Shown: positions 36,262 through 59,122 of the stretch, one piece after another | Layout of the letters: each line of letters begins with the position of its first letter | How positions within the stretch are numbered: position 1 is the first letter of the stretch | Assembly: GCA_045566995.1 (NCBI GenBank) | Contig: JBJLDU010000009.1 | Coordinates: 50,019-114,018 of the forward strand | DNA length: 64,000 bases | Direction of reading: 5' to 3' | Origin: Candidatus Pelagibacter sp. | GTDB taxonomy: Bacteria > Pseudomonadota > Alphaproteobacteria > Pelagibacterales > Pelagibacteraceae | Position numbers and translations under genes: made by a program | The notes under the pieces: model-generated | The model's database searches: none | Told to the model about the DNA's origin: nothing | Seen by the model: only the letters and a program-made list of their open reading frames with translations

Positions 36262-36267
36262 AAATTT

Positions 36268-37437: not shown

Positions 37438-37482
37438 TTAATTGTTGCAAACAACCTAACTAAATGTTTTAAAAACTAACCT

Positions 37483-38568
37483 ATGTCAAAAAAAGAAGAT
37501 TTCGTAAAATTTGATAAAGTCGACAAAAGTTACGATGGAAAAGTATTAGTAGTTAAAGATTTGAATTTAGACATCGAAGAAGGTGAATTCGTAACAATGC
37601 TTGGACCCTCTGGTTCTGGAAAAACCACATGCTTGATGATGCTTGCTGGTTTTGAAACCCCAACTAATGGAGAAATTTATTTAGATAAAAATCCAATTTC
37701 AAATATTCCTCCACACAAAAGAGGTATTGGAATGGTTTTTCAAAATTATGCTTTGTTTCCTCATATGACAGTTTTTGAAAATTTGGCTTTCCCTTTAAGA
37801 GTAAGAAAAATTTCAAAAGATGATATAGATAAAAAAGTTGAAAAGGCATTATCTATGGTTTCATTGTCAGGATTTGGAAACCGTATGCCAGGACAACTTT
37901 CAGGAGGTCAACAACAGAGAGTAGCCGTAGCAAGAGCATTGGTATTTGATCCATCAGTAGTTTTAATGGACGAACCTTTGGGTGCTTTAGATAAAAATTT
38001 AAGAGAAAGTATGCAGTACGAAATTAAACATATTCATGAAAGCATTGGTGTAACCGTTGTCTATGTTACACACGACCAAGGTGAAGCATTAACTATGTCA
38101 AACAGAATAGCAGTATTTAACGATGGTAAAGTTCAACAACTCTCGAGTCCAGATAAGTTATACGAAGAACCTGTAAATTCTTTCGTTGCAGAGTTTATTG
38201 GAGAGAATAATACTTTTGCTGGAGAAATTTCAGATATATCAAATGGATCCTGTAAAGTTAAACTAGATAAAGGTGAAATAATTGCAAATCCAATTTCAGT
38301 TAGATCTGTTGGAGAAAAAACTACAGTTTCAATTAGGCCTGAAAGAGCACTGATCAACCCTAAAGATAAAATGGATAACAATCAAAAAGGTATAATAGAA
38401 GAGGTTATATATCATGGTGACCACACAAGAGTAAGATTGAATTTACTTGGTAACTCTGAATTTATTTTAAAAGTTCCAAATAGTTCTCAAAATTTAGATA
38501 TTAAATTAGGTAACGAGATTAATATTGGCTGGAATAGTCATGATGCAAGAGCATTAGACCCAAAATAA
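37483..38568 (+). CDS. potA: PotA-type ABC ATP-binding protein
   Basis: GPSGSGKTT, MVFQNYALFPHMTV, LSGGQQQRVA, C-terminal TOBE domain. Confidence 0.9.
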   Translation: MSKKEDFVKFDKVDKSYDGKVLVVKDLNLDIEEGEFVTMLGPSGSGKTTCLMMLAGFETPTNGEIYLDKNPISNIPPHKRGIGMVFQNYALFPHMTVFENLAFPLRVRKISKDDIDKKVEKALSMVSLSGFGNRMPGQLSGGQQQRVAVARALVFDPSVVLMDEPLGALDKNLRESMQYEIKHIHESIGVTVVYVTHDQGEALTMSNRIAVFNDGKVQQLSSPDKLYEEPVNSFVAEFIGENNTFAGEISDISNGSCKVKLDKGEIIANPISVRSVGEKTTVSIRPERALINPKDKMDNNQKGIIEEVIYHGDHTRVRLNLLGNSEFILKVPNSSQNLDIKLGNEINIGWNSHDARALDPK

Positions 38569-38667
38569 GCTAAATTATTACAAAATTGTTAAAATCCCCT
38601 GTTGACTCTCTTTTCCTATGTTGCTGTACTTCGTTTTTTATAAAAAAAACGTTTAAACGGAGGATAA

Positions 38668-39786
38668 ATGAAAAAATTAAGTAAATTATTACTTGCCGTA
38701 ACTTTTGCTATCTCAGTATCTTCATCAGCATTTGCAGTAGTTGTTGCATCATGGGGTGGAGCTTACACAGAAAGTCAAAAGCTAGGATATGGTGATCCAA
38801 CTGCAAAAGCATTGGGTATACCAATCGAATGGGTAGATTATTCTGGTGGATTATCAGAAATCAAAGCCCAAAAAGAAGCAGGAGCGATTACATGGGATAT
38901 TATAGATGTATTTGCTTATGATACTATTAATGGTTGTGACGAAGGTATATTTGTTGAATTTGATTTTGATAAAGACTTTCCACCAGCTCCAGATGGTACA
39001 CCTGCAAGTGAAGACTTCTTTACAGATATGCCAAGTAAATGTGCTGTAGGAAATATTTTATATTCTTGGAACTATGCTTACAACAGTGACTTATTAAAAA
39101 GCACACCAAGTACTATTAAAGATTTCTTTAACACAAAAAGATTTCCAGGAAAAAGAGCTATTTACAAAAGTGCTCTTACAAACCTAGAAATTGCTTTAGC
39201 AGCTGATGGTGTAAAAATGGGTAAAGGTGGAGAATTTATTTACAAAAAATTAGAGGATCCAGCTTACGTAACTAGAGCTATGGACAAAATCAAAAAGCTT
39301 TGTGAAGATCCAAATGGTGGATGTGTATTTTGGTCAGCAGGAGCTCAACCACCAGAATTGTTAATGAGTGGTGAAGTTGTAATGGCAACTGGTTGGAATG
39401 GTAGATTTTTCAATGCTGCAACTGGAGAAGGTGCTCCAATAGTTCAAGTTTGGGACGGACAAGGTCTTGACTATGAATATTTTGCATTAGTTAAAGGTGG
39501 ACCAAACGAAGCAGATGCTAAAAAAGCTTTAGCAATGATGACAAATACTGAAATGTTAGCAGGAAGTGCAAAATATATTGCATATGCTCCATGGAGAAAA
39601 TCATCAATTGCAGTTATGGAAGCAGGAGAGCCTTGGTACAAAGATGGAAAAACGAACATGGTTCCACATATGCCAACAGCACCAGCTAACCTTAAAAAAT
39701 ACTTCTTAGTAAACGCTGAGTACTGGGCTGATAATGGTACAGAGCTTGGTGAACAGTGGGAAGCTATGAAAGCTAGTATTAAATAA
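38668..39786 (+). CDS. potD: PotD-family ABC substrate-binding protein (likely broad osmolyte-binding)
   Basis: Signal peptide, SWGGAYTESQ, WDIID, GWNGR; strong RBS GGAGGA. Confidence 0.85.
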   Translation: MKKLSKLLLAVTFAISVSSSAFAVVVASWGGAYTESQKLGYGDPTAKALGIPIEWVDYSGGLSEIKAQKEAGAITWDIIDVFAYDTINGCDEGIFVEFDFDKDFPPAPDGTPASEDFFTDMPSKCAVGNILYSWNYAYNSDLLKSTPSTIKDFFNTKRFPGKRAIYKSALTNLEIALAADGVKMGKGGEFIYKKLEDPAYVTRAMDKIKKLCEDPNGGCVFWSAGAQPPELLMSGEVVMATGWNGRFFNAATGEGAPIVQVWDGQGLDYEYFALVKGGPNEADAKKALAMMTNTEMLAGSAKYIAYAPWRKSSIAVMEAGEPWYKDGKTNMVPHMPTAPANLKKYFLVNAEYWADNGTELGEQWEAMKASIK

Positions 39787-39821
39787 TTAGAGTTTTAAAC
39801 ACTTTAATTTTATATTATATT

Positions 39822-39851
39822 AAGGGCGGTTACTACAACCGCCCTTTTTTT
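39822..39851 (+). terminator. Intrinsic terminator/attenuator hairpin between potD and potB
   Basis: AAGGGCGGTT-ACTAC-AACCGCCCTT plus a T-run directly before the potB ATG. Confidence 0.8.
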
Positions 39852-41105
39852 ATGAGCTCAGAAACACAAAAAATACTATCTACTGATGGAATTCCTTTAG
39901 AGGAAAGCCTTAAGCAAGCAGAAAAAAAAAATAAAATAAAAGCTTTTCTTTTAGTAACACCATTACTCTTATTTCTAATTATTACTTACATCATTCCTAT
40001 CGCAGACATGTTCTCTAGAAGTATAGATGACAAAATGGTTACCAATATGCTGCCCAAAACATATAAAGCCATGGAGCAGTGGGATGGAAAAGAACTTCCA
40101 TCCGAAGAAGTGTTTAAAGCTTTTTATTTAGATTACAAAATTTTAGTAGAGAATAAGACAGCAGGAAAGTTACAAACCCAACTAAATTATGAAAAAAATG
40201 GCTTTAAGAGTGTTCTTAAAAAACTTGCAAGAAAACAGAAGAAGTTTGAGGAAGGAAACTATAAAGAGCAAATCATGAAAGTGCATAAAAGGTGGAGAAA
40301 TGTAGATTATTGGAGAGCAATTAAAAGAAGAGCTCCATCTTATACATATTCAAAGTATTTAAAGGGCGTAGATATGTACTCAAATGAAGAGGGTAAAATA
40401 GTACAAGTTGCTGAGAATAGAAGAATTCATAGAATTTTATGGTCACGAACGTTAGAGGTAGCTTTTTTTGTAACTTTTTTTTGTTTTTTAATGGCTTATC
40501 CAATTGCACATTTATTAGCAACTCTTCCAATGAAGTATAGTAACTTGCTCATGATTTGTGTGCTGCTTCCATTTTGGACCTCATTACTTGTAAGAACTGC
40601 TAGTTGGATGATTTTATTGCAGCAGCAAGGATTGGTTAATGATTTTTTTGTTTGGATTGGTTTAGTGACAAACGATAATAGGCCAGAGATGATGTACAAT
40701 AAAACTGGGACTTATGTTGCAATGACACAAATACTTTTACCATTTATGGTGCTACCTTTATATAGTGTCATGAAAACAATCTCTCCAAGTTTAATGAGAG
40801 CTGGAAAATCTTTAGGCGCAACTCCTGGAGTGGCTTTTTTTAAAATATATTTCCCACTTACAATACCTGGAATTGGAGCGGGCTGTTTATTAGTATTTAT
40901 ACTTGCAATTGGTTATTACATAACTCCAGCCTTAGTAGGGGGAGCTTCTGGAACGCTCATAAGCAATCAGATAGCCTATCACATGAAGAGTACTTTAGAT
41001 TGGAGTTTTGCTTCGGCAATGGGATTAATGTTGTTGACTGGAGTGTTAGTTATTTATTGGATTTATAACAAACTTGTAGGAGTTGATAATATCAAACTAG
41101 GATAA
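39852..41105 (+). CDS. potB: PotB-type ABC permease
   Basis: LLPFWTSLLVR, LPFMVLPLY, EAA-like RAGKSLGA, ITPALVGG. Confidence 0.88.
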   Translation: MSSETQKILSTDGIPLEESLKQAEKKNKIKAFLLVTPLLLFLIITYIIPIADMFSRSIDDKMVTNMLPKTYKAMEQWDGKELPSEEVFKAFYLDYKILVENKTAGKLQTQLNYEKNGFKSVLKKLARKQKKFEEGNYKEQIMKVHKRWRNVDYWRAIKRRAPSYTYSKYLKGVDMYSNEEGKIVQVAENRRIHRILWSRTLEVAFFVTFFCFLMAYPIAHLLATLPMKYSNLLMICVLLPFWTSLLVRTASWMILLQQQGLVNDFFVWIGLVTNDNRPEMMYNKTGTYVAMTQILLPFMVLPLYSVMKTISPSLMRAGKSLGATPGVAFFKIYFPLTIPGIGAGCLLVFILAIGYYITPALVGGASGTLISNQIAYHMKSTLDWSFASAMGLMLLTGVLVIYWIYNKLVGVDNIKLG

Positions 41106-41107
41106 TT

Positions 41108-41962
41108 ATGGCTTTACCAAAATATACTGAACCCCATTATAGAATCTGGCATTATTTTTATCTTTTTGTATGTGGATGTGTATTTTTCTTTTTAATTGCA
41201 CCATTGTTTGTAATTTTTCCATTATCATTTAATGCAGAAGAATTTTTAGTTTTTACAGATGGAATGAAGAGACTTGATCCAGATGCATTTTCTACAAGAT
41301 GGTACAAAGATATGGTCTATGGAACAAAAAACCCTTGGGGCTTAGCTGCAAAAAATAGTTTTATAATTGCAATATTTGCAACCATTGGTTCAATTATACT
41401 TGGTACATTAGCTGCCTTAGGTTTGAGCAGCAGACATATGCCTTATAAAGGTTTGATAATGGCGATTTTAATTTCTCCCATGATAGTTCCCTTAATTATT
41501 TCAGGTGTTGCAATTTTCTTTTTTATGGCAAAAGCAGGTTTAGCCGCAACACACTTAGGTATAATTTTAGCCCATATTATTTTAGGAACTCCATTTGTGG
41601 TAATCACAGTTACTGCAACACTATCAGGGTTTGATCATAGCATAACTAGAGCTGCATCTAGCTTGGGCAGCAATCCTTTCAATACTTTTATGAAAATCAC
41701 TTTACCATTAATTCTACCTGGTGTTATTTCTGGTGGTTTGTTTGCATTTGTAACATCTTTCGACGAAGTGGTGGTTGTATTATTCTTAGCTGGTTTAGAT
41801 AATACTACAATACCAGTCCAAATGTGGACTGGTCTTAGAGAACAACTCAGTCCTACAATTTTAGCTGTAGCAACATGTTTAATTATTTTATCAATATTAA
41901 TTTTACTTACAGCTGAGCTTTTAAGAAGAAGATCTGAGAGACTAAGAGGAATAAATAGATAG
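41108..41962 (+). CDS. potC: PotC-type ABC permease
   Basis: SPMIVP, RAASSLG, SFDEVVV. Confidence 0.88.
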   Translation: MALPKYTEPHYRIWHYFYLFVCGCVFFFLIAPLFVIFPLSFNAEEFLVFTDGMKRLDPDAFSTRWYKDMVYGTKNPWGLAAKNSFIIAIFATIGSIILGTLAALGLSSRHMPYKGLIMAILISPMIVPLIISGVAIFFFMAKAGLAATHLGIILAHIILGTPFVVITVTATLSGFDHSITRAASSLGSNPFNTFMKITLPLILPGVISGGLFAFVTSFDEVVVVLFLAGLDNTTIPVQMWTGLREQLSPTILAVATCLIILSILILLTAELLRRRSERLRGINR

Positions 41963-43087
41963 TTAGTTAACAGACTCGATTACAGTAGCAATTCCCATTC
42001 CTAAACCAATACACTGAGTTGAAAGTGCATACTTTTTATTTTCTCTCTGAAGTAATTCAGCCGCTTTACCTGTAATTCTTGCACCTGTTGCTCCAAGAGG
42101 GTGACCAAGAGCAAGTGCTCCACCATCTAGATTAACTTTATCTTTGTCTATACCTAAATCTTTAATGCATGCTAAAGATTGTGAAGCGAAAGCCTCATTT
42201 AATTCAACAATATCAATTTTATCTGCTGACAAATTAGCTCTTTCTAAAGCTTTCCTTGATGCTCCAATTGGACCTAATCCCATATAGTCAGGGTCACAAC
42301 CTTGTACTGCCGTAGACACAATTCTTCCCAAGATATTTAAATTATTTTCCTTTGCATAACTTTCTTCACAAATTAATGTTGCAGCTGCACCATCGGTTAA
42401 AGGTGAAGAAGTTGCTGCTGTAACAGTGCCATTTTCATCAAATGCAAGTTTTAACCCATCTAATTTTTCCATTGTGCTACCAGGTCTAATATTTCCATCA
42501 GTATCACAATCTCCAATAGATACTATTTCATTTTTAAAATTTCCTTTTGTTTGAGCTTCATGCGCTTTTTGATGACTTGAGATTGCAAATTCCTGTTGTT
42601 CACTTCTTGAGATATTATATTTTTTAGCAACATTTTCAGCAGTAGTTCCCATTGAAAAGTATACATGAGGATTATCATTTTTATTTTCAGGATAAGGTAT
42701 TGGATCAAACCCTGTATTTACTCTGGTCATACTTTCAACACCTCCACAAATAAATACTTTTCCTGCACCTAATGAAATTTTACCTGCAGCTATATGAATA
42801 GCCTCCATTGAAGAACCGCACCATCTGTCAACTGTCATACCTGACGTTTTGACATCCATATTAGTTAAAAATGTTGTTAACTTTCCAATATTAAATGACT
42901 GCTCTCCAGTTTGGAATGCGCAACCTACAACAATATCCTCAATATCTTCTTTTTTTATATTAGATTTAGAGACTAAATTTTTAATTACTTCGGCCAATAG
43001 ATTTACTGGCTTTGTATCAATGAGTGCACCTTTTCTTGCCATCGTAAAAGGTGATCTTGAGAAGCCGGCAATAACAGGTTTAAACAT
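41963..43087 (-). CDS. Acetyl-CoA C-acyltransferase (thiolase)
   Basis: RWCGSS, NEAFASQ, GHPLGATG, CIGLGMG. Confidence 0.93.
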   Translation of the reverse strand: MFKPVIAGFSRSPFTMARKGALIDTKPVNLLAEVIKNLVSKSNIKKEDIEDIVVGCAFQTGEQSFNIGKLTTFLTNMDVKTSGMTVDRWCGSSMEAIHIAAGKISLGAGKVFICGGVESMTRVNTGFDPIPYPENKNDNPHVYFSMGTTAENVAKKYNISRSEQQEFAISSHQKAHEAQTKGNFKNEIVSIGDCDTDGNIRPGSTMEKLDGLKLAFDENGTVTAATSSPLTDGAAATLICEESYAKENNLNILGRIVSTAVQGCDPDYMGLGPIGASRKALERANLSADKIDIVELNEAFASQSLACIKDLGIDKDKVNLDGGALALGHPLGATGARITGKAAELLQRENKKYALSTQCIGLGMGIATVIESVN

Positions 43088-43103
43088 AATGATAAATATA
43101 AGG

Positions 43104-44270
43104 TTAATCTGGAAATGGTAAAGAAGTTATAATGCCTTTTCTGTTTTTTCCATTGAAAGTATTTACAAAAACTTCGTTTCCAATTTCCCAGTAATCTTTC
43201 AAAATCATAGAAAGACCTATATTCTTTTTAAATCTTGGAGAATAAATTCCAGAAGCAATTTGGCCAATTTTTGTATTATCTTTTGAATATACTGGAAGGG
43301 GCACCCCCGTTGGCTTACATGGGTCTCCATCAAACAATATTCCTCTCATTTTTTGAGCTATTCCATCAGATTGGATCTTTCTTAAAGCTTCTTTACCTAT
43401 AAAATCATGATCATCTTCCTGTTTGCAATATTTTTCAAGATTACACTCCAATGGATTATTTTCTCTTGTAAAATCATTTCCATAGGACATTAAACCAGCC
43501 TCAATTCTATCAATTAAATTTGGACATCCTGGAGAAATATTAAATTTTTGTCCATTCTCCCACACAGTATCCCAAAGTTTTTCTCCAAGCTCTATTTCAT
43601 TAAAGTGGGTTTCAAATCCTTTAAAATATATTTCAAAACCATCTTGTTTACTATATCCTGATCTAGCAATAATTTGTTTAGTTCCTAAAAAATCAAATAC
43701 TTTAAAATTAAAAAATTTTAACTTCTTTATATCTTCACCAAAAATTGAAATTAAAAGATCTTCAGATTTAGGACCTTGAATAGCTAGTGGATAAACATCT
43801 GGTTCAATAATTTCTACATTTAATTTTGATCCTAATGCAATACCTTTTGCCCAAAGCAAAATATCTGAGTCTGCAATCGAAATCCAAAACATATCATCAT
43901 CTAGCTTTAATAAAACTGGATCATTAATCATACCGGCTGTTTCATCAATTATTGGAATATAAAAACATTTACCGGTTTCCATTTTTTTTATGGATCGGGG
44001 TGTCATTTTTTGTACAAGTTTTTCAGCATCTGGACCTGTAATTTGTACTTGTCTTTGACAAGACACATCCCAAACTTGAACCTTTTCTCTTAAATGCCAG
44101 TAATCTTCTTCAACGGTATTTTTAAAACCTTTTGGCAGTAGCATATGATTAACTACAGTAAAATCTGACACACCACATTCCTCTACTTTATTTGTAAATG
44201 GAGTTCGTCTGATACGTCTAGACATATTTAATTTTATATTTTTTTGAGGAATTAAATTTTCTTTACTCAT
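43104..44270 (-). CDS. dmdA: Dimethylsulfoniopropionate demethylase DmdA (divergent clade)
   Basis: SRRIRRTP, NHMLLP, WDVS.QRQV, NDPV, WISIADSD, ARSGYSKQ.GFE, GCPNLIDRIE; matches DmdA motifs. Confidence 0.82.
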   Translation of the reverse strand: MSKENLIPQKNIKLNMSRRIRRTPFTNKVEECGVSDFTVVNHMLLPKGFKNTVEEDYWHLREKVQVWDVSCQRQVQITGPDAEKLVQKMTPRSIKKMETGKCFYIPIIDETAGMINDPVLLKLDDDMFWISIADSDILLWAKGIALGSKLNVEIIEPDVYPLAIQGPKSEDLLISIFGEDIKKLKFFNFKVFDFLGTKQIIARSGYSKQDGFEIYFKGFETHFNEIELGEKLWDTVWENGQKFNISPGCPNLIDRIEAGLMSYGNDFTRENNPLECNLEKYCKQEDDHDFIGKEALRKIQSDGIAQKMRGILFDGDPCKPTGVPLPVYSKDNTKIGQIASGIYSPRFKKNIGLSMILKDYWEIGNEVFVNTFNGKNRKGIITSLPFPD

Positions 44271-44271
44271 T

Positions 44272-44607
44272 TTATTTAGACCACCAAACTGTATAGCTAT
44301 TTTTAGAAATTATAATTGGGATATGATATTTTTTATTTTGATCTTCCATTTTAAATTTAATGTTAATTTCTGAAACTATTTTTTTTTCTGAAAAATAATT
44401 GCCAGTTTTACAAACCATTTCATAATCACACTTGCAGTCGTCTTTACTTAATTCAAATTCTTGAAGTATTCGACCACCTTCATCAGATTTAGTTTCAAAA
44501 AAAACTTTTTTTTCTCCACTTTCATAAACTTGATAAATAATTACATCAACATTTGCAGCGTGCGAGCCATTTGTTGCATCTAATAAATGAGAAGAGAAAG
44601 TTGCCAC
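44272..44607 (-). CDS. Transthyretin-like protein (HIU hydrolase family), atypical C-terminus
   Basis: SSHLLD, GGRI, YHIP; ends WWSK instead of the canonical YRGS. Confidence 0.78.
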   Translation of the reverse strand: MATFSSHLLDATNGSHAANVDVIIYQVYESGEKKVFFETKSDEGGRILQEFELSKDDCKCDYEMVCKTGNYFSEKKIVSEINIKFKMEDQNKKYHIPIIISKNSYTVWWSK

Positions 44608-44609
44608 AA

Positions 44610-46352
44610 TTATTCTATTGATGATTTCTCTCTTTTACTTGCAACTGCAGAGACTATTGGGCTTAATACAGGTTTTGCTTTAACATTTACGCATGCTGGT
44701 TTTCCACTTTCTAAAGCTCTTTTAAGTGCTGGGCCTAATTCTTCTCTTTTATTAACTAATTCTCCATGTCCTCCAAAACCCTCAAATATCTTATGAAATG
44801 GTATATCACGAAAATCAGTTCCTACACTTTTTCCACTTTTAAATAATCTTTCTTGTTGTTGGCCAATTGAAGCAAGACCCCCGTTATTATCAATTACAAC
44901 AGTAATAGGTTTTTTTTCGTAAAATACACTTTCAATAGACATACCTCCTGATAAAAACGCACCATCTCCACTAATCAGAACTACATTTGAGTCTGGACTG
45001 TGGTTTTTAGCAGATAAAGCGAATGAAACTCCAACACCTAACATGCTAAAAGTTCCAGGATGCAATATTCCTTTTAATTTTTTTCCTTTAGCACCCGCAA
45101 TGTTAATTGCAATCTCTGACCAAAAATGAGTGTTTCCTCCATCGATAACAAGCCAATCATTTTCACCCATTGCATCTTGAACATCCAATGAAAGTTGTAA
45201 AGGGTGAATTTTTCCTCCATTTTTTTTAGATGCCTCAGCTTCAATTTCTAAATCTTTTAATGATTTATCAACCCATTCTTTCTTCTTTTTTTTATTCTCT
45301 TCAAACCACTTTTTATCCAAAGACCATTTATTATTTTTTTTTAAGTTGGACAATGTATCTAAAAAAACACCAGGGTCACTTAGTAAACTAAAATCTGCAG
45401 CTCTATTAAGTTCTAATTCTTCATGTGAACCGTTCACACAAACTAATTTTGTTGTTTCTGGTATAAAAGGTGGATTTCCAAAATTCAATTGATTATCTAA
45501 TCGTGCTCCAACCACAAGAACTAGATCTGAATTATGTAATGCAAATTCTGAAGGAGGGTATTGATGTATATCAGCCAAACCCATATAAGCGTTAGCTTCT
45601 TCTCCTAATAATTTTTGATGATAAGGAACATTAAAAATTGGAATATTTAAATTATTACCAGCTGCCTCAAGATTTTTTTCTGAATGTGACCACCAAACAC
45701 CGTGTCCACCAATAATAAGTGGTTTTTTTGAATTACAAGCAAGCTCTAATATTTCCGAAAGTGAATTTGGATCTGGCCAAGCTTTGGCTAAAGGTTTTGC
45801 TTTTTGGGAATATGGTCTTTCTTCTAATCCAACTTCCTCAGCAAAAGATGAAAACATTATATCAACTGGAAGACTAAGATGTACGGCTCCAGGATACCCA
45901 TTAGTTGCAATATGATATGCTTTATCCACAAATTCTCTTATTCTAGTTCCATCAGTAATACTCGCGCTATATTTAGTTAAAGGGGCTGCAATTGAAACAT
46001 CATCAATTTCTTTAAAACCACCTGAGCCTTGCCTTTTAAGACTGCTAGATCCGGTAATATAAATAATTGGACTTCTCTCCCCCCAAGCCTCCATCATTGA
46101 AGGGACAGCATTTGTAAATCCTTCGGGTCCAACTAAACATACTGATGGTTTACGAGTAATTCTTGTATTACCATCCGCTAAGTGACCTGCAATTTGTTCA
46201 TGAGGAGTATTAATAACTTCAATTTGGCATTCAGCAAAACCTTCAATTGCTGGGTTACAAAAACCTCCTGAAAGCGTAAAAACTTTGCTAATTCCTTTAT
46301 CTTTTAGAGCTCTCGCAAGTACTGCTCCACCTCTAATTTTATTTTCACTCAT
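44610..46352 (-). CDS. ThDP-dependent lyase/decarboxylase (HACL/benzaldehyde-lyase/ALS-like superfamily)
   Basis: HEQ catalytic Glu, GFTNAV, GDGAF...DNN ThDP motif. Confidence 0.8.
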   Translation of the reverse strand: MSENKIRGGAVLARALKDKGISKVFTLSGGFCNPAIEGFAECQIEVINTPHEQIAGHLADGNTRITRKPSVCLVGPEGFTNAVPSMMEAWGERSPIIYITGSSSLKRQGSGGFKEIDDVSIAAPLTKYSASITDGTRIREFVDKAYHIATNGYPGAVHLSLPVDIMFSSFAEEVGLEERPYSQKAKPLAKAWPDPNSLSEILELACNSKKPLIIGGHGVWWSHSEKNLEAAGNNLNIPIFNVPYHQKLLGEEANAYMGLADIHQYPPSEFALHNSDLVLVVGARLDNQLNFGNPPFIPETTKLVCVNGSHEELELNRAADFSLLSDPGVFLDTLSNLKKNNKWSLDKKWFEENKKKKKEWVDKSLKDLEIEAEASKKNGGKIHPLQLSLDVQDAMGENDWLVIDGGNTHFWSEIAINIAGAKGKKLKGILHPGTFSMLGVGVSFALSAKNHSPDSNVVLISGDGAFLSGGMSIESVFYEKKPITVVIDNNGGLASIGQQQERLFKSGKSVGTDFRDIPFHKIFEGFGGHGELVNKREELGPALKRALESGKPACVNVKAKPVLSPIVSAVASKREKSSIE

Positions 46353-47516
46353 TTAGTAATTTACCTTATTTACAGTACTATCTATTACTATATTAGAAGT
46401 AACATCATTAATATCGTTTAATCCCACTAACCCAAGTGTTGTGCTGGCTTCTTCCTTGATTATTTCCACAATTCTCCTTAATCCTTTTTTACCATCAGCT
46501 CCCATTGCGTACATCACGGGCCTACCAATCATTGCATAATCAGCACCAAATGCAAGCGCTCTTACAATATCACTTCCACTTCTTATTCCACTATCAAAAA
46601 TTAGAGGGAAATCACTTCCCACTGACTTTCTTATTAATGGAAGCATATTTATTGCTGCTGTAGCACTATCTAATTGTCTACCACCATGATTTGAAACTTG
46701 AATTGCATCTGCACCAGCTTCTTTTATTTGTTTTGCATCATCAGGAGACATTACTCCTTTAATTATAAGTTTACCCTTCCATTTATCTCTTACTCTTTTA
46801 AGTGTATCCCAATCTGTAGAGCCTCTACTTTCTTTTCTTTTAAAAATACCATCTCCACTTTTAGATGTAACATAGTTCATTGGTTTAGGAATGCCGCTTA
46901 GCAAAGTCGATAAAGACCAAGTAGGATGAGTTGCAAAATCAAAAAATTGTTTTGGACCAATCTTGAAAGGGTAGGAGAAACCATTTTTATCATCTCTAGT
47001 TCGTCTGGATAGTACTGGGACATCCACAGTTAATATTGCAACTTCGTATCCTGTATTCTTAGCTCTATCTAAAAGTTCCATAACAAAATTTTCATCCTGA
47101 AATATATACAGCTGCATCCATGAGTGACCTTCTGAAAGTTCATACATTTTTTCTAAAGTTGTTGTAGAAGCCATAGAAACACAAGTAGGTATATTGTTTC
47201 TCGCACTTTCAGCTGCTAACATAGAGTCTGCCCCAGGCCATGATAAATTAGTCATTCCCATTGGAGCAAAACCAAATGGAAAATCAAATTCATACCCTAA
47301 TACTTTTTTTTTAAGAGATCTTTTTTCAACATTTCTTAAAACTTTAGGTTCAAGTCTAATTTGATCTAAAGCTCTGCTATTTATTTCTGCTAATTTTTCA
47401 TCTCCTGATGCACCATCAATAAAATCAAAAACTAATTTAGGTAGACGTTTACGTGACAGTTCCCTTGCATCTTTAATGCTAAAAATTTTTTGACTTGGTA
47501 AAATATTATCACTCAT
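46353..47516 (-). CDS. FMN-dependent alpha-hydroxy acid oxidase/dehydrogenase
   Basis: FDFIDGA, WMQLY, LTVD, KGV, SNHGGRQLD, DSGIRSG. Confidence 0.92.
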   Translation of the reverse strand: MSDNILPSQKIFSIKDARELSRKRLPKLVFDFIDGASGDEKLAEINSRALDQIRLEPKVLRNVEKRSLKKKVLGYEFDFPFGFAPMGMTNLSWPGADSMLAAESARNNIPTCVSMASTTTLEKMYELSEGHSWMQLYIFQDENFVMELLDRAKNTGYEVAILTVDVPVLSRRTRDDKNGFSYPFKIGPKQFFDFATHPTWSLSTLLSGIPKPMNYVTSKSGDGIFKRKESRGSTDWDTLKRVRDKWKGKLIIKGVMSPDDAKQIKEAGADAIQVSNHGGRQLDSATAAINMLPLIRKSVGSDFPLIFDSGIRSGSDIVRALAFGADYAMIGRPVMYAMGADGKKGLRRIVEIIKEEASTTLGLVGLNDINDVTSNIVIDSTVNKVNY

Positions 47517-48201
47517 TATTAATTTTAATATATTCTTTTAAATTAAGTTGTTTATTTTGATCAACAAAATAAGCATTATGACTTTCTCTGGAAGAATAAA
47601 CCTCAGTTGGTTTTCCGTCAATAAAAAGTACTGCAACTCCATCATCTACAGCTACACCATTTGGTAAATTTTTATTTTTTATATTTTCTCTGTATTTATC
47701 CGCTCTTTTTGCATCTGAATAATGTGGGGTAAAACTTCCAGATATAAGCCCTATGCCACGTAATGGTTTGAAGCCAGGGCCATCTGAGTCTGTCAGAAAA
47801 TAATCAAACCAACATGCTGCACCAGCGCTAACACCAGATAGAATTATACCTGCATTATAAATTTCATTGAAAAGCTCAATCAAATTATTTTTTTTCCATA
47901 ATTCGAGCATGAATTTTGTATTTCCCCCACCAATATAAACAGCATCTAAGTTTGAAAGCCATCTTTCAAAACCCTTAATGCTAGATACAAGATCAAAATG
48001 GGAAACTTTTAGGCTAGTATTTTCAAATCTTTTATAAAATAGTTTAGTTTTTTTTGCGTCGTCATTACTAGCGGTTGGTAAAAATCCAATAGAGCAATTT
48101 TCTTTGCTCAATTTATCAACAAAAAATTGATCTAAGTCTCTATCTTCATTATGAGTAAAACCCCCACCTCCAACTGTTATTATTTGTTTTTTACCCTTCA
48201 C
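47509..48201 (-). CDS. Peptidase E (S51) / class I glutamine amidotransferase-like protein
   Basis: FLPTAS, IGGGNT, GVSAGA nucleophile, PHY. Confidence 0.85.
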   Translation of the reverse strand: MKGKKQIITVGGGGFTHNEDRDLDQFFVDKLSKENCSIGFLPTASNDDAKKTKLFYKRFENTSLKVSHFDLVSSIKGFERWLSNLDAVYIGGGNTKFMLELWKKNNLIELFNEIYNAGIILSGVSAGAACWFDYFLTDSDGPGFKPLRGIGLISGSFTPHYSDAKRADKYRENIKNKNLPNGVAVDDGVAVLFIDGKPTEVYSSRESHNAYFVDQNKQLNLKEYIKINNE

Positions 48202-48213
48202 TAACTCAAGTTT

Positions 48214-49443
48214 TTAATTTTTGGTTTTAATGCCAGGCCAAGGATTTGGTTCTTTAGGAATGTTCCTGTTTATACCTCTAACAATTTCTCCTTCTGTATC
48301 GTACATTGGTAATTTGCAGATTTCACCTTTGTGAACTTTTCCATCAGTACATTTAACATCGACAACATCTCCAGGACCATTTTCATTATTATCAAGGTGA
48401 ACGATACCAACACCACAAATTTGATAGGGTGACCAAGTACTTGAAGTTATTTTGCCAATATTTTTTTCATTAATTTTAATACTTTCTCCTTTGATTGCAG
48501 TTCCATCTGCTACTCTAATTCCCCAAGTCTTACATGTTTTGTCTGATATCATTAAAGCCTCTTTTCCAATAAAATCTTCTTTATCAAAATTTATAAAACG
48601 TCCAAGGCCAACTGAAAATGGATCAGTTTTTTTTGAAAAATCTTGCCCTGCAGAAAGTAAACCTGCCTCAATTCGTCTACATCTAAATCCTGGAGTAGCA
48701 ACTAAAATCATACCTAACTTTTTTCCTTCCTCAAGAATATAATCTCCAATCTTTTCAGTTTCATTTTCAGGTCGAAAATAAATTTCCCAACCAAGTTCGT
48801 TTGTGAAACCACTTCGGCTTATAATTACTTTTTGATCTAAGATTTGTAATTCTTTCCAATCAAAGTACTTCCAATCATTTTCTGAAAAACCTTCAGCTAT
48901 ATTTTCAAGTAGCTTCATTGAAAGTGGGCCTTGAATTTGACTTACCCATACATCAGGATCTTTGATTTCAACATCCATTTCTTTAGAGTGAGCTTTATAC
49001 CAAGAAAAAAGATCTCCATCTGCTTGAGCAAACCAATATTTATCTTCTTCAATTTTTAATAGAATACCATCTGTAATCATTCCTCCATCGTGATAGCAAG
49101 CGAACTGATAAGAACATCTACCTTTTGATATTTTTGATACATCTCTTGGGAATATTTTTTGTAATAACTTCAATGAATCTGGGCCAGATATTTCAAATGG
49201 ATGTTCACCAGTATGTCTAAATATTATTTCTTGTCGTCCTTTCCAATACATTTCCTCGGGACTTACATTAGATAATTTTTCAAGTGTTAATCTCCCAGCA
49301 TAATTAGAATACTCAGGATCATAGGGTAGCTCTTGGTAGGTCAATGGATGAACTTGAATTGACCTTGCAAGCTCCAAAGAGTTAGAATTTTCAAGATTAA
49401 CAGGCTTTACTGTAAACCTATATTTATTAATTAAATCTTTCAT
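48214..49443 (-). CDS. GcvT-family aminomethyltransferase/THF-dependent demethylase
   Basis: GGMITDG, QIQGP, SRSGFTNELGWEIY, RRIEAGL, DFIGKEAL, WSP. Confidence 0.88.
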   Translation of the reverse strand: MKDLINKYRFTVKPVNLENSNSLELARSIQVHPLTYQELPYDPEYSNYAGRLTLEKLSNVSPEEMYWKGRQEIIFRHTGEHPFEISGPDSLKLLQKIFPRDVSKISKGRCSYQFACYHDGGMITDGILLKIEEDKYWFAQADGDLFSWYKAHSKEMDVEIKDPDVWVSQIQGPLSMKLLENIAEGFSENDWKYFDWKELQILDQKVIISRSGFTNELGWEIYFRPENETEKIGDYILEEGKKLGMILVATPGFRCRRIEAGLLSAGQDFSKKTDPFSVGLGRFINFDKEDFIGKEALMISDKTCKTWGIRVADGTAIKGESIKINEKNIGKITSSTWSPYQICGVGIVHLDNNENGPGDVVDVKCTDGKVHKGEICKLPMYDTEGEIVRGINRNIPKEPNPWPGIKTKN

Positions 49444-49558
49444 TATTTTTTTTCTAAATAATCAAAATACATCAATAAAACAAATAAAAAAGAACCATTT
49501 TCACTGTTGCTATATAAGTTGCTAATTGTTACCTTTTATTTTTTAAAGAGAGGAAATT

Positions 49559-51046
49559 ATGAAAAACATTTTTAAATTGATATCAATTTCATTGGTATCA
49601 CTATTTGTAACATTTTCTTTTGCCAATGCATCAAGCGGCGTATTTAAATTATCTCATGATGTTGGTTTTGGAAAAGATACAAATTTAGACGCAATTACTA
49701 AGGGACGACTGTTTCAGGTAGTAATAATGACACAGAACCGTCTTGTTAGAAAAGATCTTAAAGGGGTTACATCGCCTGAGCTAGCAACAGACTGGTCAGG
49801 AAATGCAGATGCAACAGAATGGACTTTTAACTTAAGAAAAGGTGTTAAATTCCATGATGGATCTGAGTTTGATGCAGAGGATGTAAAATACTCTTTGATG
49901 AGAGTTAAAGATCCTGAAATTGGTTCGCCTGCTAAGAAAAGTATGAGTGCAGTAACAGATATTGAGGTTGTAGACTCACACACAGTTAAAATGAAGTTGA
50001 ATACATCTTTTGCAGATTTTCCACTTTTACTGACAGATTATAGACTAAGAATGATACCTAGTGGATCAGGTGATACTATTGGAAAAACTGGAATTGGAAC
50101 AGGACCTTTTATAGTAGAAAAATTTGATGCTGAGGGAACAACAATACTTAAAGCAAACCCAGATTATTGGGAAGGAGCACCTAAACTTGCTGAAGTACAA
50201 GTAATAGCTATTCCAGATGGTCAAGCTAGAATTCAAGCTTTGCTTACTGGTCAAATAGATATGAATAGATATGTTCCATTCAATCAGAAAAAAATATTTG
50301 ATGGTAATCCAAAATTCAATGTATCAGTGATACCCACAGGAAACTGGAGAGGTATGGTAATGAGAACTGACGTTGCACCATTTGATGATCCTAGAGTAAG
50401 AAAGGCTGTCAGAATAGCTGTAGATAGACAAGAGTTAGTTGATTTAGTTATGGCTGGAGCAGCAACAGTATCTTGTGATACTCCAGTTGCCCCGTCTGAT
50501 CAATACAGAATGAAAAAGAAGTGTCCACCTCAACATGCAACTGCTAAAAAACTACTAGCAGAAGCAGGTTATCCAGATGGTATTGATTTCACAATTCATG
50601 TATCTACAAAAGAACCAACATGGCCTACTATTGCTGAGGTTTTACAACAACAATTTGCTAAAGCTAACATAAGAGCAGATATTCAAATGACACCTTCAAA
50701 AAGTTATTGGAATGAAACTTGGATGAAAAAGCCTGTAGCAATGACACGTTGGAATGAGAGACCTGCGGACAGTATTTTGCATGAAGCTTATCATAGTGAA
50801 GCAAAATGGAATGAATCTTTCTACAAAAGTGCATCTTTTGACAAAAATTTAGCTGAAGCTAGAGGTGAGTTAAATTTCAGTAAAAGAAAAGCTGCATATA
50901 TCAATGCTCAGAAAACACTATGGGAAGAATCTGGAACTATGATTCCTTACCATGTATCTAGATTGGTTGTCACATCTTCTAAAGTAAAAAATCTCGACGA
51001 AGTTGAGTATTTTTCAATAAGATGGCACACAGTTAGTGTTGACTAA
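49559..51046 (+). CDS. ABC transporter substrate-binding protein, family 5 (Dpp/Opp/opine type)
   Basis: Signal peptide, PELATDW, LRKGVKFHDGS, GTGPF, DPRVRKA. Confidence 0.9.
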   Translation: MKNIFKLISISLVSLFVTFSFANASSGVFKLSHDVGFGKDTNLDAITKGRLFQVVIMTQNRLVRKDLKGVTSPELATDWSGNADATEWTFNLRKGVKFHDGSEFDAEDVKYSLMRVKDPEIGSPAKKSMSAVTDIEVVDSHTVKMKLNTSFADFPLLLTDYRLRMIPSGSGDTIGKTGIGTGPFIVEKFDAEGTTILKANPDYWEGAPKLAEVQVIAIPDGQARIQALLTGQIDMNRYVPFNQKKIFDGNPKFNVSVIPTGNWRGMVMRTDVAPFDDPRVRKAVRIAVDRQELVDLVMAGAATVSCDTPVAPSDQYRMKKKCPPQHATAKKLLAEAGYPDGIDFTIHVSTKEPTWPTIAEVLQQQFAKANIRADIQMTPSKSYWNETWMKKPVAMTRWNERPADSILHEAYHSEAKWNESFYKSASFDKNLAEARGELNFSKRKAAYINAQKTLWEESGTMIPYHVSRLVVTSSKVKNLDEVEYFSIRWHTVSVD

Positions 51047-51054
51047 TAATTTTT

Positions 51055-51086
51055 GTTTTACAGGCCTTTAAGTAGGCCTGTAAAAC
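51055..51086 (+). terminator. Perfect 13-bp stem-loop after the family-5 SBP gene (terminator or mRNA stabiliser)
   Basis: GTTTTACAGGCCT-TTAAGT-AGGCCTGTAAAAC; only a weak U-tract follows. Confidence 0.7.
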
Positions 51087-51129
51087 CTCTTTCATTTCTA
51101 AATAAATAATTTAAAATTTAAGTATTCTT

Positions 51130-52086
51130 ATGCTTTTTTTAATTATAAAGAGAATTCTATTAGGTCTAATAACTTTATTTATTGTATCATTAATCACTTT
51201 TGTTGGAACAGAAATTTTACCCGGTGATGCATGTACAACGTATCTTGAAAGACAAGCATTTGGAGAGCAATTAGAGGCTTGTTATAGAAGATTAGGTTTG
51301 AATGTTCCTGCATATGAGAGATATGTATCCTGGGCAGTAAATGCTATTCAAGGAGACTTTGGTTATTCATTGAGTGGAGAAATGCCGATTAAAGAGGTTC
51401 TAGGGCCACGTATTAAAAATTCATTAGTTTTAGCATCAGCTGCTATTTTCATTGGTATACCAATCGCTCTAATACTTGGAATAGTAACTGCCCTTTGGAG
51501 AGATAAATTGCCAGACGTAGCAATTTCAACAGTAACTATATTTGCAATGACTATTCCAGAGTTTATCAGTGCTACATTATTGATTTTAATAATTGCAATA
51601 TGGTTAGAGTGGTTACCTGGTATCGTGATAGTCCCAACTGATGTTTCATTCTTTGAACTATTACCAAACATTATTTTACCAGTAATAGCTATTGCAATGA
51701 TTATGACAGCTCATATGGCGCGGATGGTAAGATCAAGCGTCATACAAGTTATGGCAAGTGAGTATGTTCAAATGGCAATTTTAAAAGGTGTTCCATATTG
51801 GAAAATGGTTTTTAAACATGTTTTACCAAATGCATTGTTACCAGCGATTAATGTTGTAGCTCTAACAATTGCATGGCTTTTAGGTGGTGTTGTTGTAACT
51901 GAGGTTGTCTTTAATTATCCTGGTCTTGGAAGGTTGGTTATAGAGTCTATTTCAAATAGAGATTTACCAACAGTTCAAGCTTTAGCAATAATTCTTGCAT
52001 CTATATATGTTAGTATAAATTTATTGGCAGATCTAATGACATTGATGCTTAATCCAAGATTAAAAACGTTACAGATAAGAAAATAA
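51130..52086 (+). CDS. Family-5 ABC permease (DppB-like)
   Basis: PGD, GDFGYS, EYVQMAILKG, EVVFNYPGLG, RDLP. Confidence 0.9.
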   Translation: MLFLIIKRILLGLITLFIVSLITFVGTEILPGDACTTYLERQAFGEQLEACYRRLGLNVPAYERYVSWAVNAIQGDFGYSLSGEMPIKEVLGPRIKNSLVLASAAIFIGIPIALILGIVTALWRDKLPDVAISTVTIFAMTIPEFISATLLILIIAIWLEWLPGIVIVPTDVSFFELLPNIILPVIAIAMIMTAHMARMVRSSVIQVMASEYVQMAILKGVPYWKMVFKHVLPNALLPAINVVALTIAWLLGGVVVTEVVFNYPGLGRLVIESISNRDLPTVQALAIILASIYVSINLLADLMTLMLNPRLKTLQIRK

Positions 52087-52087
52087 T

Positions 52088-52981
52088 ATGAAATTAGATA
52101 ATATTTATCAGGAAGAAAAGAAAAGTAATTTCGCAAAAGTCTCTGAGATAATCATTACAATGGCCTCAAGACCATCAGGGTTTATTGGGTTAAGTATATT
52201 GATTTTCCATGTAATACTTGCATTTATTAGCCCTTATATTGCGCCATATGATTTTAAAGCAATAAACCCAACTTTGATGCTACAAGCTCCTTCTGCTGAA
52301 TATTGGTTTGGAACTGATGATCTTGGAAGGGATGTTTTTACTAGAACAATTTTAGGCGGAAGAACAGCTTTAACAATTACTTTCTTTGGATCTTTAATAG
52401 CACTACTTTGGGGTGGTCTATTAGGAATTTTTTGTGGACTAGTTGGTGGTAAAACTGACGATATAGTGATGAGGATTGTTGATGCATTTTTATCTATACC
52501 TTGGATATTAGCAATGTTGTTGATTGTATCTTTATTAGGTACATCGACTGAAGTACTAATACCTGCATTGGGTTTCTTTTATGGTAAAGGAATTGTTAGA
52601 GTTGCAAGAGCTGCAACTCATGATGTAATTGCTAAAGATTTTATTGTATCAGCTAGAGCAAGAGGACACAGTAATTTTTCAATAATATGGAATGAAATAA
52701 TTCCAAATGTAAGAGATGCAATTTTAGTGGAAGGTGCAATGAGATGGTCATGGATGTTACTTGGCTTCAGCTCTTTGTCATTCCTAGGTTTTGGCGTTAG
52801 TCCTCCAACTCCGGATTGGGGACTGATGATTTCAAATGCGAGAGGATTAATGTCCTTTGCTTATTGGTCAGTGATAGCTCCAATAGTTGGTTTAAGCAGC
52901 TTAATAATTGGTATTAATTTGACAGCCGATGCCTTTGCTAAAGCATTAGGTATAGATAGATCAACAAAAGCTCCAGTTTAA
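52088..52981 (+). CDS. Family-5 ABC permease (DppC-like)
   Basis: WFGTDDLGRDVF, LSFLGFGVSPPTPDWG. Confidence 0.9.
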   Translation: MKLDNIYQEEKKSNFAKVSEIIITMASRPSGFIGLSILIFHVILAFISPYIAPYDFKAINPTLMLQAPSAEYWFGTDDLGRDVFTRTILGGRTALTITFFGSLIALLWGGLLGIFCGLVGGKTDDIVMRIVDAFLSIPWILAMLLIVSLLGTSTEVLIPALGFFYGKGIVRVARAATHDVIAKDFIVSARARGHSNFSIIWNEIIPNVRDAILVEGAMRWSWMLLGFSSLSFLGFGVSPPTPDWGLMISNARGLMSFAYWSVIAPIVGLSSLIIGINLTADAFAKALGIDRSTKAPV

Positions 52982-52982
52982 A

Positions 52983-55010: not shown

Positions 55011-55066
55011 AGTTTTATATTTATTATTTTTAATTTGTATTTAAGTATGTTTAAATACCTTTTAGG

Positions 55067-55630: not shown

Positions 55631-55701
55631 TAATAATATAATATTTGATGCCTTTAAGTTGCTCTTGAATAAGATATTCATTATAAACTTTTATTCTCAT
55701 T

Positions 55702-59103: not shown

Positions 59104-59122
59104 AGAATAGATAGCTTAATAT

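Follow-up and report, generated by a model that had tools for sequence, protein, structure and literature searches.

The window, a 64,000-nt stretch of Candidatus Pelagibacter sp. DNA (GCA_045566995.1, contig JBJLDU010000009.1, positions 50,019-114,018 of the forward strand), carries seven minus-strand open reading frames between 41963 and 49443, with coordinates checked on the window itself. The first gene of the operon encodes GcvTL, a GcvT-fold THF-dependent methyl/aminomethyl transferase (48214-49443; PF01571 and PF08669). It is followed by an S51 serine hydrolase of the PepE/cyanophycinase family (47509-48201; PF03575, 127 bits), an FMN-dependent 2-hydroxyacid dehydrogenase of the LldD/MdlB type (46353-47516; PF01070, 399 bits), an orphan ThDP enzyme with three ThDP domains (44610-46352), a transthyretin-fold protein, TTR (44272-44607; PF00576), a DmdA paralogue that we name DmdA2 (43104-44270; NF009133) and a FadA-like thiolase (41963-43087; TIGR01930, 418 bits). 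From GcvTL to the thiolase, consecutive genes lie 12 nt apart, overlap by 8 nt, abut without a gap and then lie 2, 1 and 16 nt apart. Pfam and NCBIfam bear out the family calls of all seven genes, and the order and tight packing given in the original prediction hold, as does its statement that dmdB, dmdC, dmdD and acuI are missing from the neighbouring genes. RNA-library contigs from four seawater studies cover most of 41963-49443 and span all but one of the six gene junctions; they are consistent with expression of the operon and stop short of proving a single transcript.

A divergent, AT-rich spacer of 115 nt (49444-49558), presumed to be the promoter region and without a match to any Rfam family, separates the operon from a plus-strand importer of the Dpp/Opp type, called by Pfam. 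The importer comprises a family-5 binding protein (49559-51046), two permeases (51130-52086 and 52088-52981) and a fused double ATPase (52983-55010). Beyond it, also on the plus strand, lie bioY (55067-55630; PF02632) and a FadB-like 3-hydroxyacyl-CoA dehydrogenase/enoyl-CoA hydratase gene (55702-57924; Pfam). The window also carries two homocysteine S-methyltransferase genes and msrA near these genes.

Gene order is the same in 80 of 80 related Pelagibacteraceae loci, as far as each contig reaches, in four further genomes (G006, G019, G126 and G141; three genera, 54-82% protein identity) and in metagenome contigs. Conservation across SAR11, which the original prediction had named as a check on itself, is thus found, and identical order in the 80 loci and four further genomes is therefore not a matter of chance. 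The genes also travel together: of 150 sampled genomes of the family, the 4 that have GcvTL are exactly those that have the ThDP enzyme and those that have the family-5 binding protein. Two genomes, G114 and G080, show an empty site, in which the FadB-like gene adjoins the thiolase, divergently and 105 nt apart, between identical outer flanks. Thiolase orthologues are present in four sampled genomes that do not have the block, and in same-genus genomes of this kind the FadB-like gene is about 80% identical and has the thiolase beside it. From this it follows that, in a minority of Pelagibacteraceae, the block was inserted between the two genes of a resident fadB/fadA-like pair. The thiolase, initially counted as the seventh member, is a resident neighbour downstream of the conserved block, and its FadB-like partner is the resident flank on the other side. 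The block proper, about 12.6 kb (43088-55701), consists of six translationally coupled enzyme genes and the divergent Dpp-type importer. BioY, which lies between the importer and the FadB-like gene, is a passenger that varies: it is present in L014, but L025-L027 and L028-L030 lack it and have the FadB-like gene directly 3' of the ATPase gene.

DmdA2 scores 533.7 bits against NF009133, the NCBIfam DMSP demethylase model (cut-off 410), and 392 bits against structure 3TFH. The "DmdA" of the block is a paralogue, sharing 48% identity with the canonical DmdA of the same genome, which is encoded in a dmdC-dmdB-dmdA cluster on another contig. One could envision DmdA2 as a second DMSP demethylase isozyme whose neighbours serve an unrelated purpose or a downstream DMSP-linked step. 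Orthologues from other lineages also pass the DmdA equivalog cut-off (551 and 580 bits), the folate residues Glu204 and Tyr206 are kept in DmdA2 and all orthologues, and one to three dmdA copies have been reported per Pelagibacter genome (10.64898/2026.04.03.716430). In one genome outside SAR11 (G358), the crotonase gene that follows DmdA2 recalls DmdD, which falls within the crotonase superfamily (PMC5395565). Against these points, the Trp of DmdA that is reported as key to, and specific for, the interaction with DMSP (Trp197; PMC7487153) is replaced by Tyr in DmdA2 and every orthologue, and a complete canonical cluster already exists in the genome. DmdA2 proteins from different lineages are nearer to one another (57-66% identity) than to canonical DmdA (44-49%), and the gene lies 1-30 nt after the TTR gene in every SAR11 locus and in three other lineages. 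We consider the isozyme explanation quite unlikely. The DMSP pathway of 'Ca. Pelagibacter ubique' HTCC1062 and Ruegeria pomeroyi (DmdA-DmdB-DmdC-DmdD/AcuH) has in common with the block a GcvT-fold THF-dependent methyltransferase, whereas DmdA2 is tied in the block to three proteins foreign to that pathway: the FMN dehydrogenase, the ThDP enzyme and TTR. Judging from its sequence, DmdA2 is probably a methyltransferase from a sulfonium, or another onium compound, to THF.

The FMN enzyme has the SNHGGRQ catalytic motif and falls under the LldD cut-offs of NCBIfam. Among solved structures it is matched best by 7f22, an L-lactate oxidase, and 6bfg, the full-length (S)-mandelate dehydrogenase, and the alignment with 6bfg runs end to end, membrane segment included (252 bits). 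The original prediction called this enzyme a 2-hydroxyacid oxidase; it matches the membrane-type dehydrogenases LldD and full-length MdlB best, so it does not necessarily use O2. The mandelate core of Pseudomonas putida, MdlB-MdlC(-MdlD), likewise has a membrane-type FMN dehydrogenase followed directly by a ThDP enzyme. Here the likeness ends: the block has no racemase or aldehyde dehydrogenase (ALDH), TTR and the methyltransferases are extra, and the ThDP enzyme is of another kind. It was proposed to be a 2-oxoacid decarboxylase, but no such enzyme, benzoylformate decarboxylase included, is among the 60 solved-structure matches listed. The closest are 2-hydroxyacyl-CoA lyase (HACL) and oxalyl-CoA decarboxylase (OXC) structures (8vzc, about 188 bits; 7pt2, about 175 bits; also 2q27). 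It shares their three-domain architecture, and has both the catalytic glutamate of PHEQ and the GDG...NN motif. It lies under all NCBIfam cut-offs (best PRK05858, 275 bits), and its HACL and OXC scores of 244 and 212 bits are far under the equivalog cut-offs of 600 and 557. With 67-71% identity to orthologues in high-GC Alphaproteobacteria and a mean column identity of 82% (17 sequences), the enzyme is an orphan that forms its own very highly conserved family, nearest to 2-hydroxyacyl-CoA lyase/oxalyl-CoA decarboxylase.

Together with TTR, it constitutes an invariant core across Alphaproteobacteria, high-GC lineages included. TTR shares the PF00576 fold with 5-hydroxyisourate hydrolase (HIUase) and keeps the active-site His, Arg, His and Pro, but scores 70.2 bits against TIGR02962 (cut-off 87.45). 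Relative to HIUase, it has lost the Asp of the DGR motif and gained an invariant His16 (PMC13751858). Ten orthologues from five lineages all have His7, His16, Arg46, Tyr94-His95, Pro97 and Trp108. The C-terminus reads WWSK in place of YRGS, and with this signature replaced by an invariant WW(S/P)x the protein is not a hydroxyisourate hydrolase. No uricase or OHCU decarboxylase is among the genes annotated in this analysis.

The core recurs in several arrangements outside SAR11. In G358, genes for a homocysteine S-methyltransferase, GcvTL, the FMN dehydrogenase, the ThDP enzyme, TTR, DmdA2, OsmC and a crotonase follow one another. A Pelagibius genome has FMN dehydrogenase-ThDP-TTR-DmdA2 adjoining a DctPQM TRAP system. 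In a Methylocystis-labelled MAG, the same four genes lie by a Dpp system and an S51 gene and are followed by a MetF-like gene (a weak match) and purU, an arrangement that fits 5-methyl-THF as a product. G214 has the FMN dehydrogenase-ThDP-TTR trio with a TAXI-TRAP system and no adjacent DmdA2, so the core can do without removal of a methyl group; one 5.4-Mb genome has ThDP-TTR alone. TRAP systems occur where S51 is missing and the Dpp importer accompanies S51. This pattern fits uptake of a free acid in the former and, in the latter, of a conjugate that needs hydrolysis.

In another reading the core is a general, non-sulfur route whose substrate is a small 2-hydroxy acid, for instance glycolate, lactate or a compound of the alpha-hydroxyglycine/oxalyl type. 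A 2-oxo or oxalyl product would come from the FMN enzyme, CO2 would be removed by the HACL/OXC-like ThDP enzyme to leave a C1/formyl unit, TTR would hydrolyse the product and the GcvT-fold proteins would hand C1 units to THF. The affinity of the ThDP enzyme to those of oxalyl-CoA/formyl-CoA chemistry is in line with this proposal, as are the ureide hydrolysed by the closest TTR relatives, the PurU of the Methylocystis-type cluster, the TRAP carboxylate importers of two variants and the spread of the family across Rhizobiales-type lineages. One ThDP-TTR pair lies near glcDEF-like genes, but this neighbourhood occurs only once, and on the opposite strand. DmdA-type enzymes catalyse redox-neutral methyl transfer and not methylene capture (PMC5395565), and DmdA2 in the Methylocystis-type cluster is followed by a gene whose weak match to the methylene-THF reductase family fits methyl-THF as the product. 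There is no formyl-CoA transferase or CoA ligase near the module, and homocysteine S-methyltransferases are repeatedly beside it. A general route of this sort seems to us rather improbable.

GcvTL is under every NCBIfam cut-off (best DmdA, 190 bits against 410) and 33% identical to DmdA2. It has FRHTGEHP at the site of DmdA WDV(S/A)..RQ and extensions at both termini, and its homologues of no more than 48% identity are found in contexts unrelated to this one. The S51 protein is under the PepE and cyanophycinase cut-offs and keeps the GVSAG serine and PHY histidine motifs. The family-5 binding protein is closest to GsiB/YliB (1uqw) and HbpA, but under the GsiB cut-off. In the Methylocystis-labelled MAG, the Dpp system adjoining the module is orthologous (51-61% identical) and the S51 gene is 35% identical.

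Methionine-transamination DMSP synthesis (Met, MTOB, MTHB, DMSHB, DMSP) proceeds through methylated 2-hydroxy and 2-oxo acids, just the kind that the block enzymes could handle. SAR11 is, to our knowledge, not a known DMSP maker, and the single DMSHB decarboxylase described, DsyD (PF04115), is from another family than the block enzymes. A catabolic variant would have DmdA2 convert DMSHB to MTHB, the FMN enzyme oxidise MTHB to MTOB, and the ThDP enzyme yield methional for oxidation by an ALDH to MMPA, unless MTOB were transaminated to methionine. The first two reaction types, a methyl donor to THF and a 2-hydroxy acid to a 2-oxo acid, fit the gene families, and both the FMN and the ThDP enzyme are in the block. 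DmdA2 belongs to the DmdA family, above the cut-off, and Tyr in place of Trp197 would suit a related but different sulfonium (PMC7487153). Methionine-related genes are close by, SAR11 requires reduced sulfur (10.64898/2026.04.03.716430), some producers accumulate DMSHB, and the enzymes acting on it, including the converting step, are unidentified in most organisms (PMC11306096). This route is still unlikely in our view. The ALDH that the route needs is absent from the block, and the ThDP enzyme is nearest to HACL/OXC. S51, the importer, GcvTL and TTR are given no role, though ThDP-TTR is the invariant core and, in a distant high-GC lineage, is again accompanied by importer and S51. The trio also occurs where no DmdA2 adjoins it, as well as in MAGs assigned by label to lineages, for example Methylocystis and Rhizobiaceae, that are not known to be marine, which weakens any strictly marine-sulfonium reading. 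The ilvE downstream in three genomes is, by its equivalog score, a housekeeping BCAT.

We somewhat favour a different interpretation, in which the block is a self-contained route by which an imported compound of the methylated 2-hydroxy-acid type is catabolised or scavenged. No published description of this module was found in the literature, and we infer all substrates and the order of steps. Some features count against the proposal: two THF-dependent transferases cannot work successively on a single dimethylsulfonium group, and the nearest relatives of the ThDP enzyme use CoA thioesters, yet the block has no CoA ligase or CoA transferase. The trio without DmdA2 and the labels of the high-GC relatives speak against it too. 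Import would be the task of the ABC system with its family-5 binding protein, and the S51 hydrolase would split an amide bond. DmdA2 would then transfer the activated methyl group to THF, giving 5-methyl-THF, and GcvTL would do likewise for a second methyl donor. The LldD/MdlB-type dehydrogenase would oxidise the 2-hydroxy acid to a 2-oxo acid, which the orphan ThDP enzyme would decarboxylate or cleave; the WW-type TTR, whose gene is always directly after that of the ThDP enzyme, may perform a coupled follow-up step. The substrate is most likely a sulfonium, imported at least partly in amide-linked, dipeptide-like form.

The six minus-strand enzyme genes and the divergent Dpp-type importer at 43088-55701 form a block that is real, abundant and undescribed. 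It encodes a putative pathway built from known enzyme superfamilies, and our literature search found no paper on the module. The original prediction read seven minus-strand genes as one run, and their order and coordinates proved exact: a GcvT-like protein (GcvTL, 48214-49443), an S51 peptidase of the PepE/cyanophycinase family of serine hydrolases (47509-48201), an FMN-dependent 2-hydroxyacid dehydrogenase (FMNdh, 46353-47516), a ThDP enzyme (44610-46352), a transthyretin-like protein (TTR, 44272-44607), a DmdA-like paralogue (DmdA2, 43104-44270) and a thiolase (41963-43087). Pfam and NCBIfam matches uphold all seven family assignments, and the packing is as tight as described, every junction falling between an 8-nt overlap and a 16-nt gap. 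Divergent from GcvTL, across a 115-nt spacer, lies a complete Dpp/Opp-type ABC importer comprising a family-5 binding protein, two permeases and a fused double ATPase; the genes of a PotABCD-like importer converge on the thiolase, the last gene of the run. The window has a GC content of about 32%; among public sequences, single-cell genomes with the label Pelagibacteraceae come closest (ThDP protein identity, 99%). An Rfam scan of 27000-60000 returned no riboswitch or leader, only two matches at chance level.

The operon is conserved across SAR11. The order from the divergent Dpp genes through GcvTL-S51-FMNdh-ThDP-TTR-DmdA2-thiolase to the convergent PotABCD-like genes is identical in all of the best 80 loci, which come from species-level genomes and were read as far as each contig extends. 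Metagenome contigs show the same gene order as the window. Within an even sample of 150 genomes of the family, one and the same set of 4 encodes GcvTL, the ThDP enzyme and the family-5 binding protein; the thiolase occurs in 8, including 4 without the block. Two complete genomes of the same genus that lack the block, G114 and G080, have the outer flanks of the window, and their thiolase gene stands 105 nt from a FadB-like gene, in divergent orientation. Because the thiolase occurs in block-free genomes, adjoining the FadB-like gene, the unit is six enzymes plus importer, inserted: a block of about 12.6 kb, here also carrying BioY, within a resident fadB/fadA-like pair. The proposal that all seven genes form one unit thus holds for six of them, the thiolase being resident. 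We had ourselves first drawn the thiolase into the block from four same-genus genomes that lack both, an assignment refuted by the wider search and by the empty sites of G114 and G080. Aligning the empty-site spacer with the block ends exposed no recognisable remnant or repeat.

Several features of the neighbourhood deserve mention. The run at 35521-41962 (an Amdase-like gene of the arylmalonate decarboxylase/racemase family, a creatinase-type M24 peptidase and the PotABCD-like importer) is a flank conserved in genomes with and without the block; a distant GcvTL homologue at another locus (L016) likewise lies near a creatinase-type M24 gene. On the other side, at 58147-61740, are genes for an arginase-family protein, an ALDH and an M20 peptidase, and block-free genomes have this trio beside their FadB-like gene as well. 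Roughly 10-15 kb from the block, 28243-31778 has a methionine/methyl-sulfur scavenging theme, with two homocysteine S-methyltransferase genes (28243-29232, plus strand; 30864-31778, minus strand) and MsrA, a peptide-methionine-sulfoxide reductase (30394-30846), directly 3' of the second. In three genomes (G126, G141 and G006) the operon is split between GcvTL and S51 by an opposite-strand gene for a family-3, amino-acid type binding protein (L026:9739-10467 and L024:9482-10207). The same three carry a class IV aminotransferase 3' of the thiolase, which we considered as a pathway transaminase and rejected as a housekeeping BCAT (NF005726, 463 versus 396 bits). At L014, on a 1.25-Mb contig of a nanopore assembly, the binding-protein, S51, ThDP, TTR and DmdA2 genes look split; these are probably homopolymer errors of a polished long-read assembly rather than pseudogenes.

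Judged by sequence, the window's DmdA-like gene is a paralogue of canonical DmdA. DmdA2 has the GcvT fold (PF01571 and PF08669) and scores 533.7 bits on NF009133, the NCBIfam equivalog for DMSP demethylase, against a cut-off of 410; therefore, routine annotation would name it DmdA. It also reaches 392 bits against 3TFH, the structure of HTCC1062 DmdA. Its identity to the canonical DmdA of the same genome is 48%, and DmdA2 proteins of different lineages are 57-66% identical to one another versus 44-49% to canonical DmdA. One report describes a Trp ('W171') as key to the DMSP-specific interaction (PMC7487153); the offset of the folate residues close by places it at Trp197 of 3TFH. The position is Tyr in DmdA2 and in 7 of 7 other aligned orthologues, from five lineages, and Trp in the genome's canonical DmdA. 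DmdA2 thus shares with the DMSP demethylase its fold, its equivalog score and the folate-binding Glu204/Tyr206 ('E178/Y180', motif E-I-Y), but lacks both Trp197 and the association with dmdB and dmdC. Neither of these genes lies within the block, in line with the original prediction; the canonical leuCDB-dmdC-dmdB-dmdA-asd-sdh cluster of this genome is on another contig (C3). That cluster is a 12-gene block reported to be conserved among Pelagibacter, in at least 121 of 135 genomes (10.64898/2026.04.03.716430). The genome has a third DmdA-related gene of the GcvT fold (contig C6:67427-68497), which scores 238 bits on NF009133, under the cut-off, and may be the counterpart of SAR11_1265, which adjoins metF in HTCC1062 (PMC3160333).

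FMNdh is a member of the 2-hydroxyacid family (PF01070, 399 bits) and has the catalytic motif SNHGGRQ, with its catalytic His and Arg. It aligns end to end with 6bfg, a full-length membrane-type (S)-mandelate dehydrogenase of the MdlB type, and its best NCBIfam matches are LldD-type lactate dehydrogenases, under their cut-offs. The family given in the original prediction stands, but with matches to dehydrogenases of these kinds its 'oxidase' label is not established. The FMNdh and ThDP genes abut, FMNdh first, just as an FMN dehydrogenase gene is directly followed by a ThDP gene in the mandelate MdlB-MdlC pair. In that pathway, however, the partner is of the benzoylformate-decarboxylase type and an ALDH follows, whereas the block has no ALDH and its ThDP enzyme is nearer to 2-hydroxyacyl-CoA lyase and oxalyl-CoA decarboxylase (HACL/OXC).

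The catalytic Glu and a GDG...NN motif are in place in the ThDP enzyme, whose conservation is unusually high: mean column identity is 82% across sequences ranging from SAR11 to the Rhizobiales type. Among solved structures it comes nearest to 2-hydroxyacyl-CoA lyases/synthases and oxalyl-CoA decarboxylases, followed by benzaldehyde lyase and acetolactate synthases. HACL/OXC enzymes are thus its closest solved kin, yet it misses equivalog-level similarity to them (NF058623, 243.6 bits against a cut-off of 600; NF006721, 211.5 against 557; TIGR03254, 197.7 against 739) and falls under every NCBIfam cut-off. The block contains no CoA-activating gene. A search of the ESM Atlas with the ThDP sequence reached generic ThDP clusters only, and a predicted complex of the ThDP enzyme with TTR received a score of zero, which is evidence neither way.

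TTR is, on its residues, a distinct subfamily and no 5-hydroxyisourate hydrolase (HIUase). It scores 70.2 on the HIUase model TIGR02962 (cut-off 87.45). HIUases have ten conserved residues, among them a C-terminal YRGS (PMC13751858). Of these, the block's TTR shares the His, Arg, His and Pro, with Ile as a conservative substitute for Leu107, but the Asp of DGR is lost and all four YRGS residues give way to an invariant WW(S/P)x C-terminus; it has an additional invariant His16. S51 retains the GVSAG (Ser) and PHY (His) motifs and is far from both PepE (NF003642, 35 versus 156 bits) and cyanophycinase (TIGR02069, 33 versus 127 bits). GcvTL is 33% identical to DmdA2, with terminal extensions and FRHTGEHP at a conserved motif. 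Its distant homologues, at no more than 48% identity, lie in unrelated contexts that offer no clue to function.

Variants of the module occur in other lineages. G358, a low-GC genome of another family, combines genes for a binding protein, a homocysteine S-methyltransferase, GcvTL, FMNdh, ThDP, TTR, DmdA2, OsmC and a crotonase. A Pelagibius genome has FMNdh-ThDP-TTR-DmdA2 beside a DctPQM TRAP system and a LysR gene. In a Methylocystis-labelled MAG of 61% GC, an orthologous Dpp system (binding protein 51% identical, permeases 58-61%) accompanies S51, LysR and FMNdh-ThDP-TTR-DmdA2, which is followed by a weak methylene-THF-reductase match and then by PurU. G214 (59% GC) has FMNdh-ThDP-TTR followed by a TAXI-TRAP system, with no adjacent DmdA2, and a 5.4-Mb genome carries ThDP-TTR alone, close to glcDEF-like genes. 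The ThDP and TTR pair is thus the invariant heart of the module, with FMNdh and DmdA2 as frequent partners. A phylum-wide sample of 400 genomes gave no match besides the window's own; the order to which G214 belongs comprises three genomes only. With the ThDP enzyme as query at E <= 1e-100, PLSDB plasmids gave no match. Two high-GC lineages have IS-type transposase genes as neighbours of the module (L119:12572-13396; L120:15345-17746), and one of the two has an integrase gene as well, a hint that the module is mobile there.

The importer is of the TRAP type where S51 is absent and of the Dpp type where S51 is present. A carboxylate could be taken up free via TRAP, or via Dpp as an amide-linked conjugate that S51 would split. 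The imported carboxylate would be a 2-hydroxy acid and, in most lineages, would bear an activated methyl group for transfer to THF by DmdA2; one variant has, 3' of DmdA2, a weakly matching MetF-like gene and PurU, in keeping with 5-methyl-THF as the product. Homocysteine S-methyltransferase genes stand beside the module in G358 and at the Methylocystis-type locus; two more, along with MsrA, lie in the window no more than 15 kb away. Given this recurring methyl-sulfur and methionine flavour, we favour as the substrate a 2-hydroxy acid with an onium group, probably a sulfonium, or a conjugate of it.

The specific route of the original prediction, through 4-dimethylsulfonio-2-hydroxybutyrate (DMSHB), is one possible instance of this reading. 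DMSHB accumulates in some producers and the enzymes that convert it are largely unknown (PMC11306096), which speaks for such a route; it leaves the importer, S51, GcvTL and TTR without a role, however, needs an ALDH that the block does not have, and fits awkwardly with relatives whose labels name lineages not known to be marine. In a bolder reading that we consider rather unlikely, the ThDP enzyme and the WW-type TTR would be a new two-protein catalytic unit acting on an onium-bearing 2-oxo acid (for example, the missing conversion of a DMSHB-type or other sulfonium 2-oxo acid), the two Trp at the C-terminus of TTR, both invariant, would serve as a cage for the cation, and DmdA2 would be no DMSP demethylase at all. 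The original claim of a candidate new catabolic pathway is upheld in part: gene content, packing and conserved order survive, thiolase membership does not, and the 'oxidase' label is not borne out.

In four seawater studies, RNA-library contigs reach 27-29 of 30 bins and bridge the thiolase/DmdA2, DmdA2/TTR, TTR/ThDP, ThDP/FMNdh and FMNdh/S51 junctions. The S51/GcvTL junction (48059-48312) is almost uncovered in 3 of 4 runs and permits no conclusion. Such contigs are blind to strand, transcript ends and single transcripts, may include DNA carry-over, and weakly support expression of the block in seawater. The block is abundant in seawater data: a single 90%-identity cluster of GcvTL has 819 member sequences, an exact ThDP sequence recurs in 327 indexed blocks of an assembly collection, and relatives of the ThDP enzyme are encoded by 515 or more species-level genomes.

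The ocean's most abundant heterotroph is SAR11, and studies of marine sulfur cycling use dmdA as a standard marker. DmdA2 would be annotated and counted as a DMSP demethylase, although its context, together with a reported substrate-contact residue, favours another methyl donor. If DmdA2 is no DMSP demethylase, a share of the 'dmdA' counted in ocean metagenomes would report on a different, unrecognised compound. The presence/absence polymorphism of the block inside one genus is a natural experiment for culture work. The substrate, once known, would add a further algal metabolite that feeds SAR11, assign a role to an orphan ThDP family and to a new transthyretin-fold subfamily, and reveal what fraction of the environmental 'dmdA' signal truly reflects DMSP demethylation.
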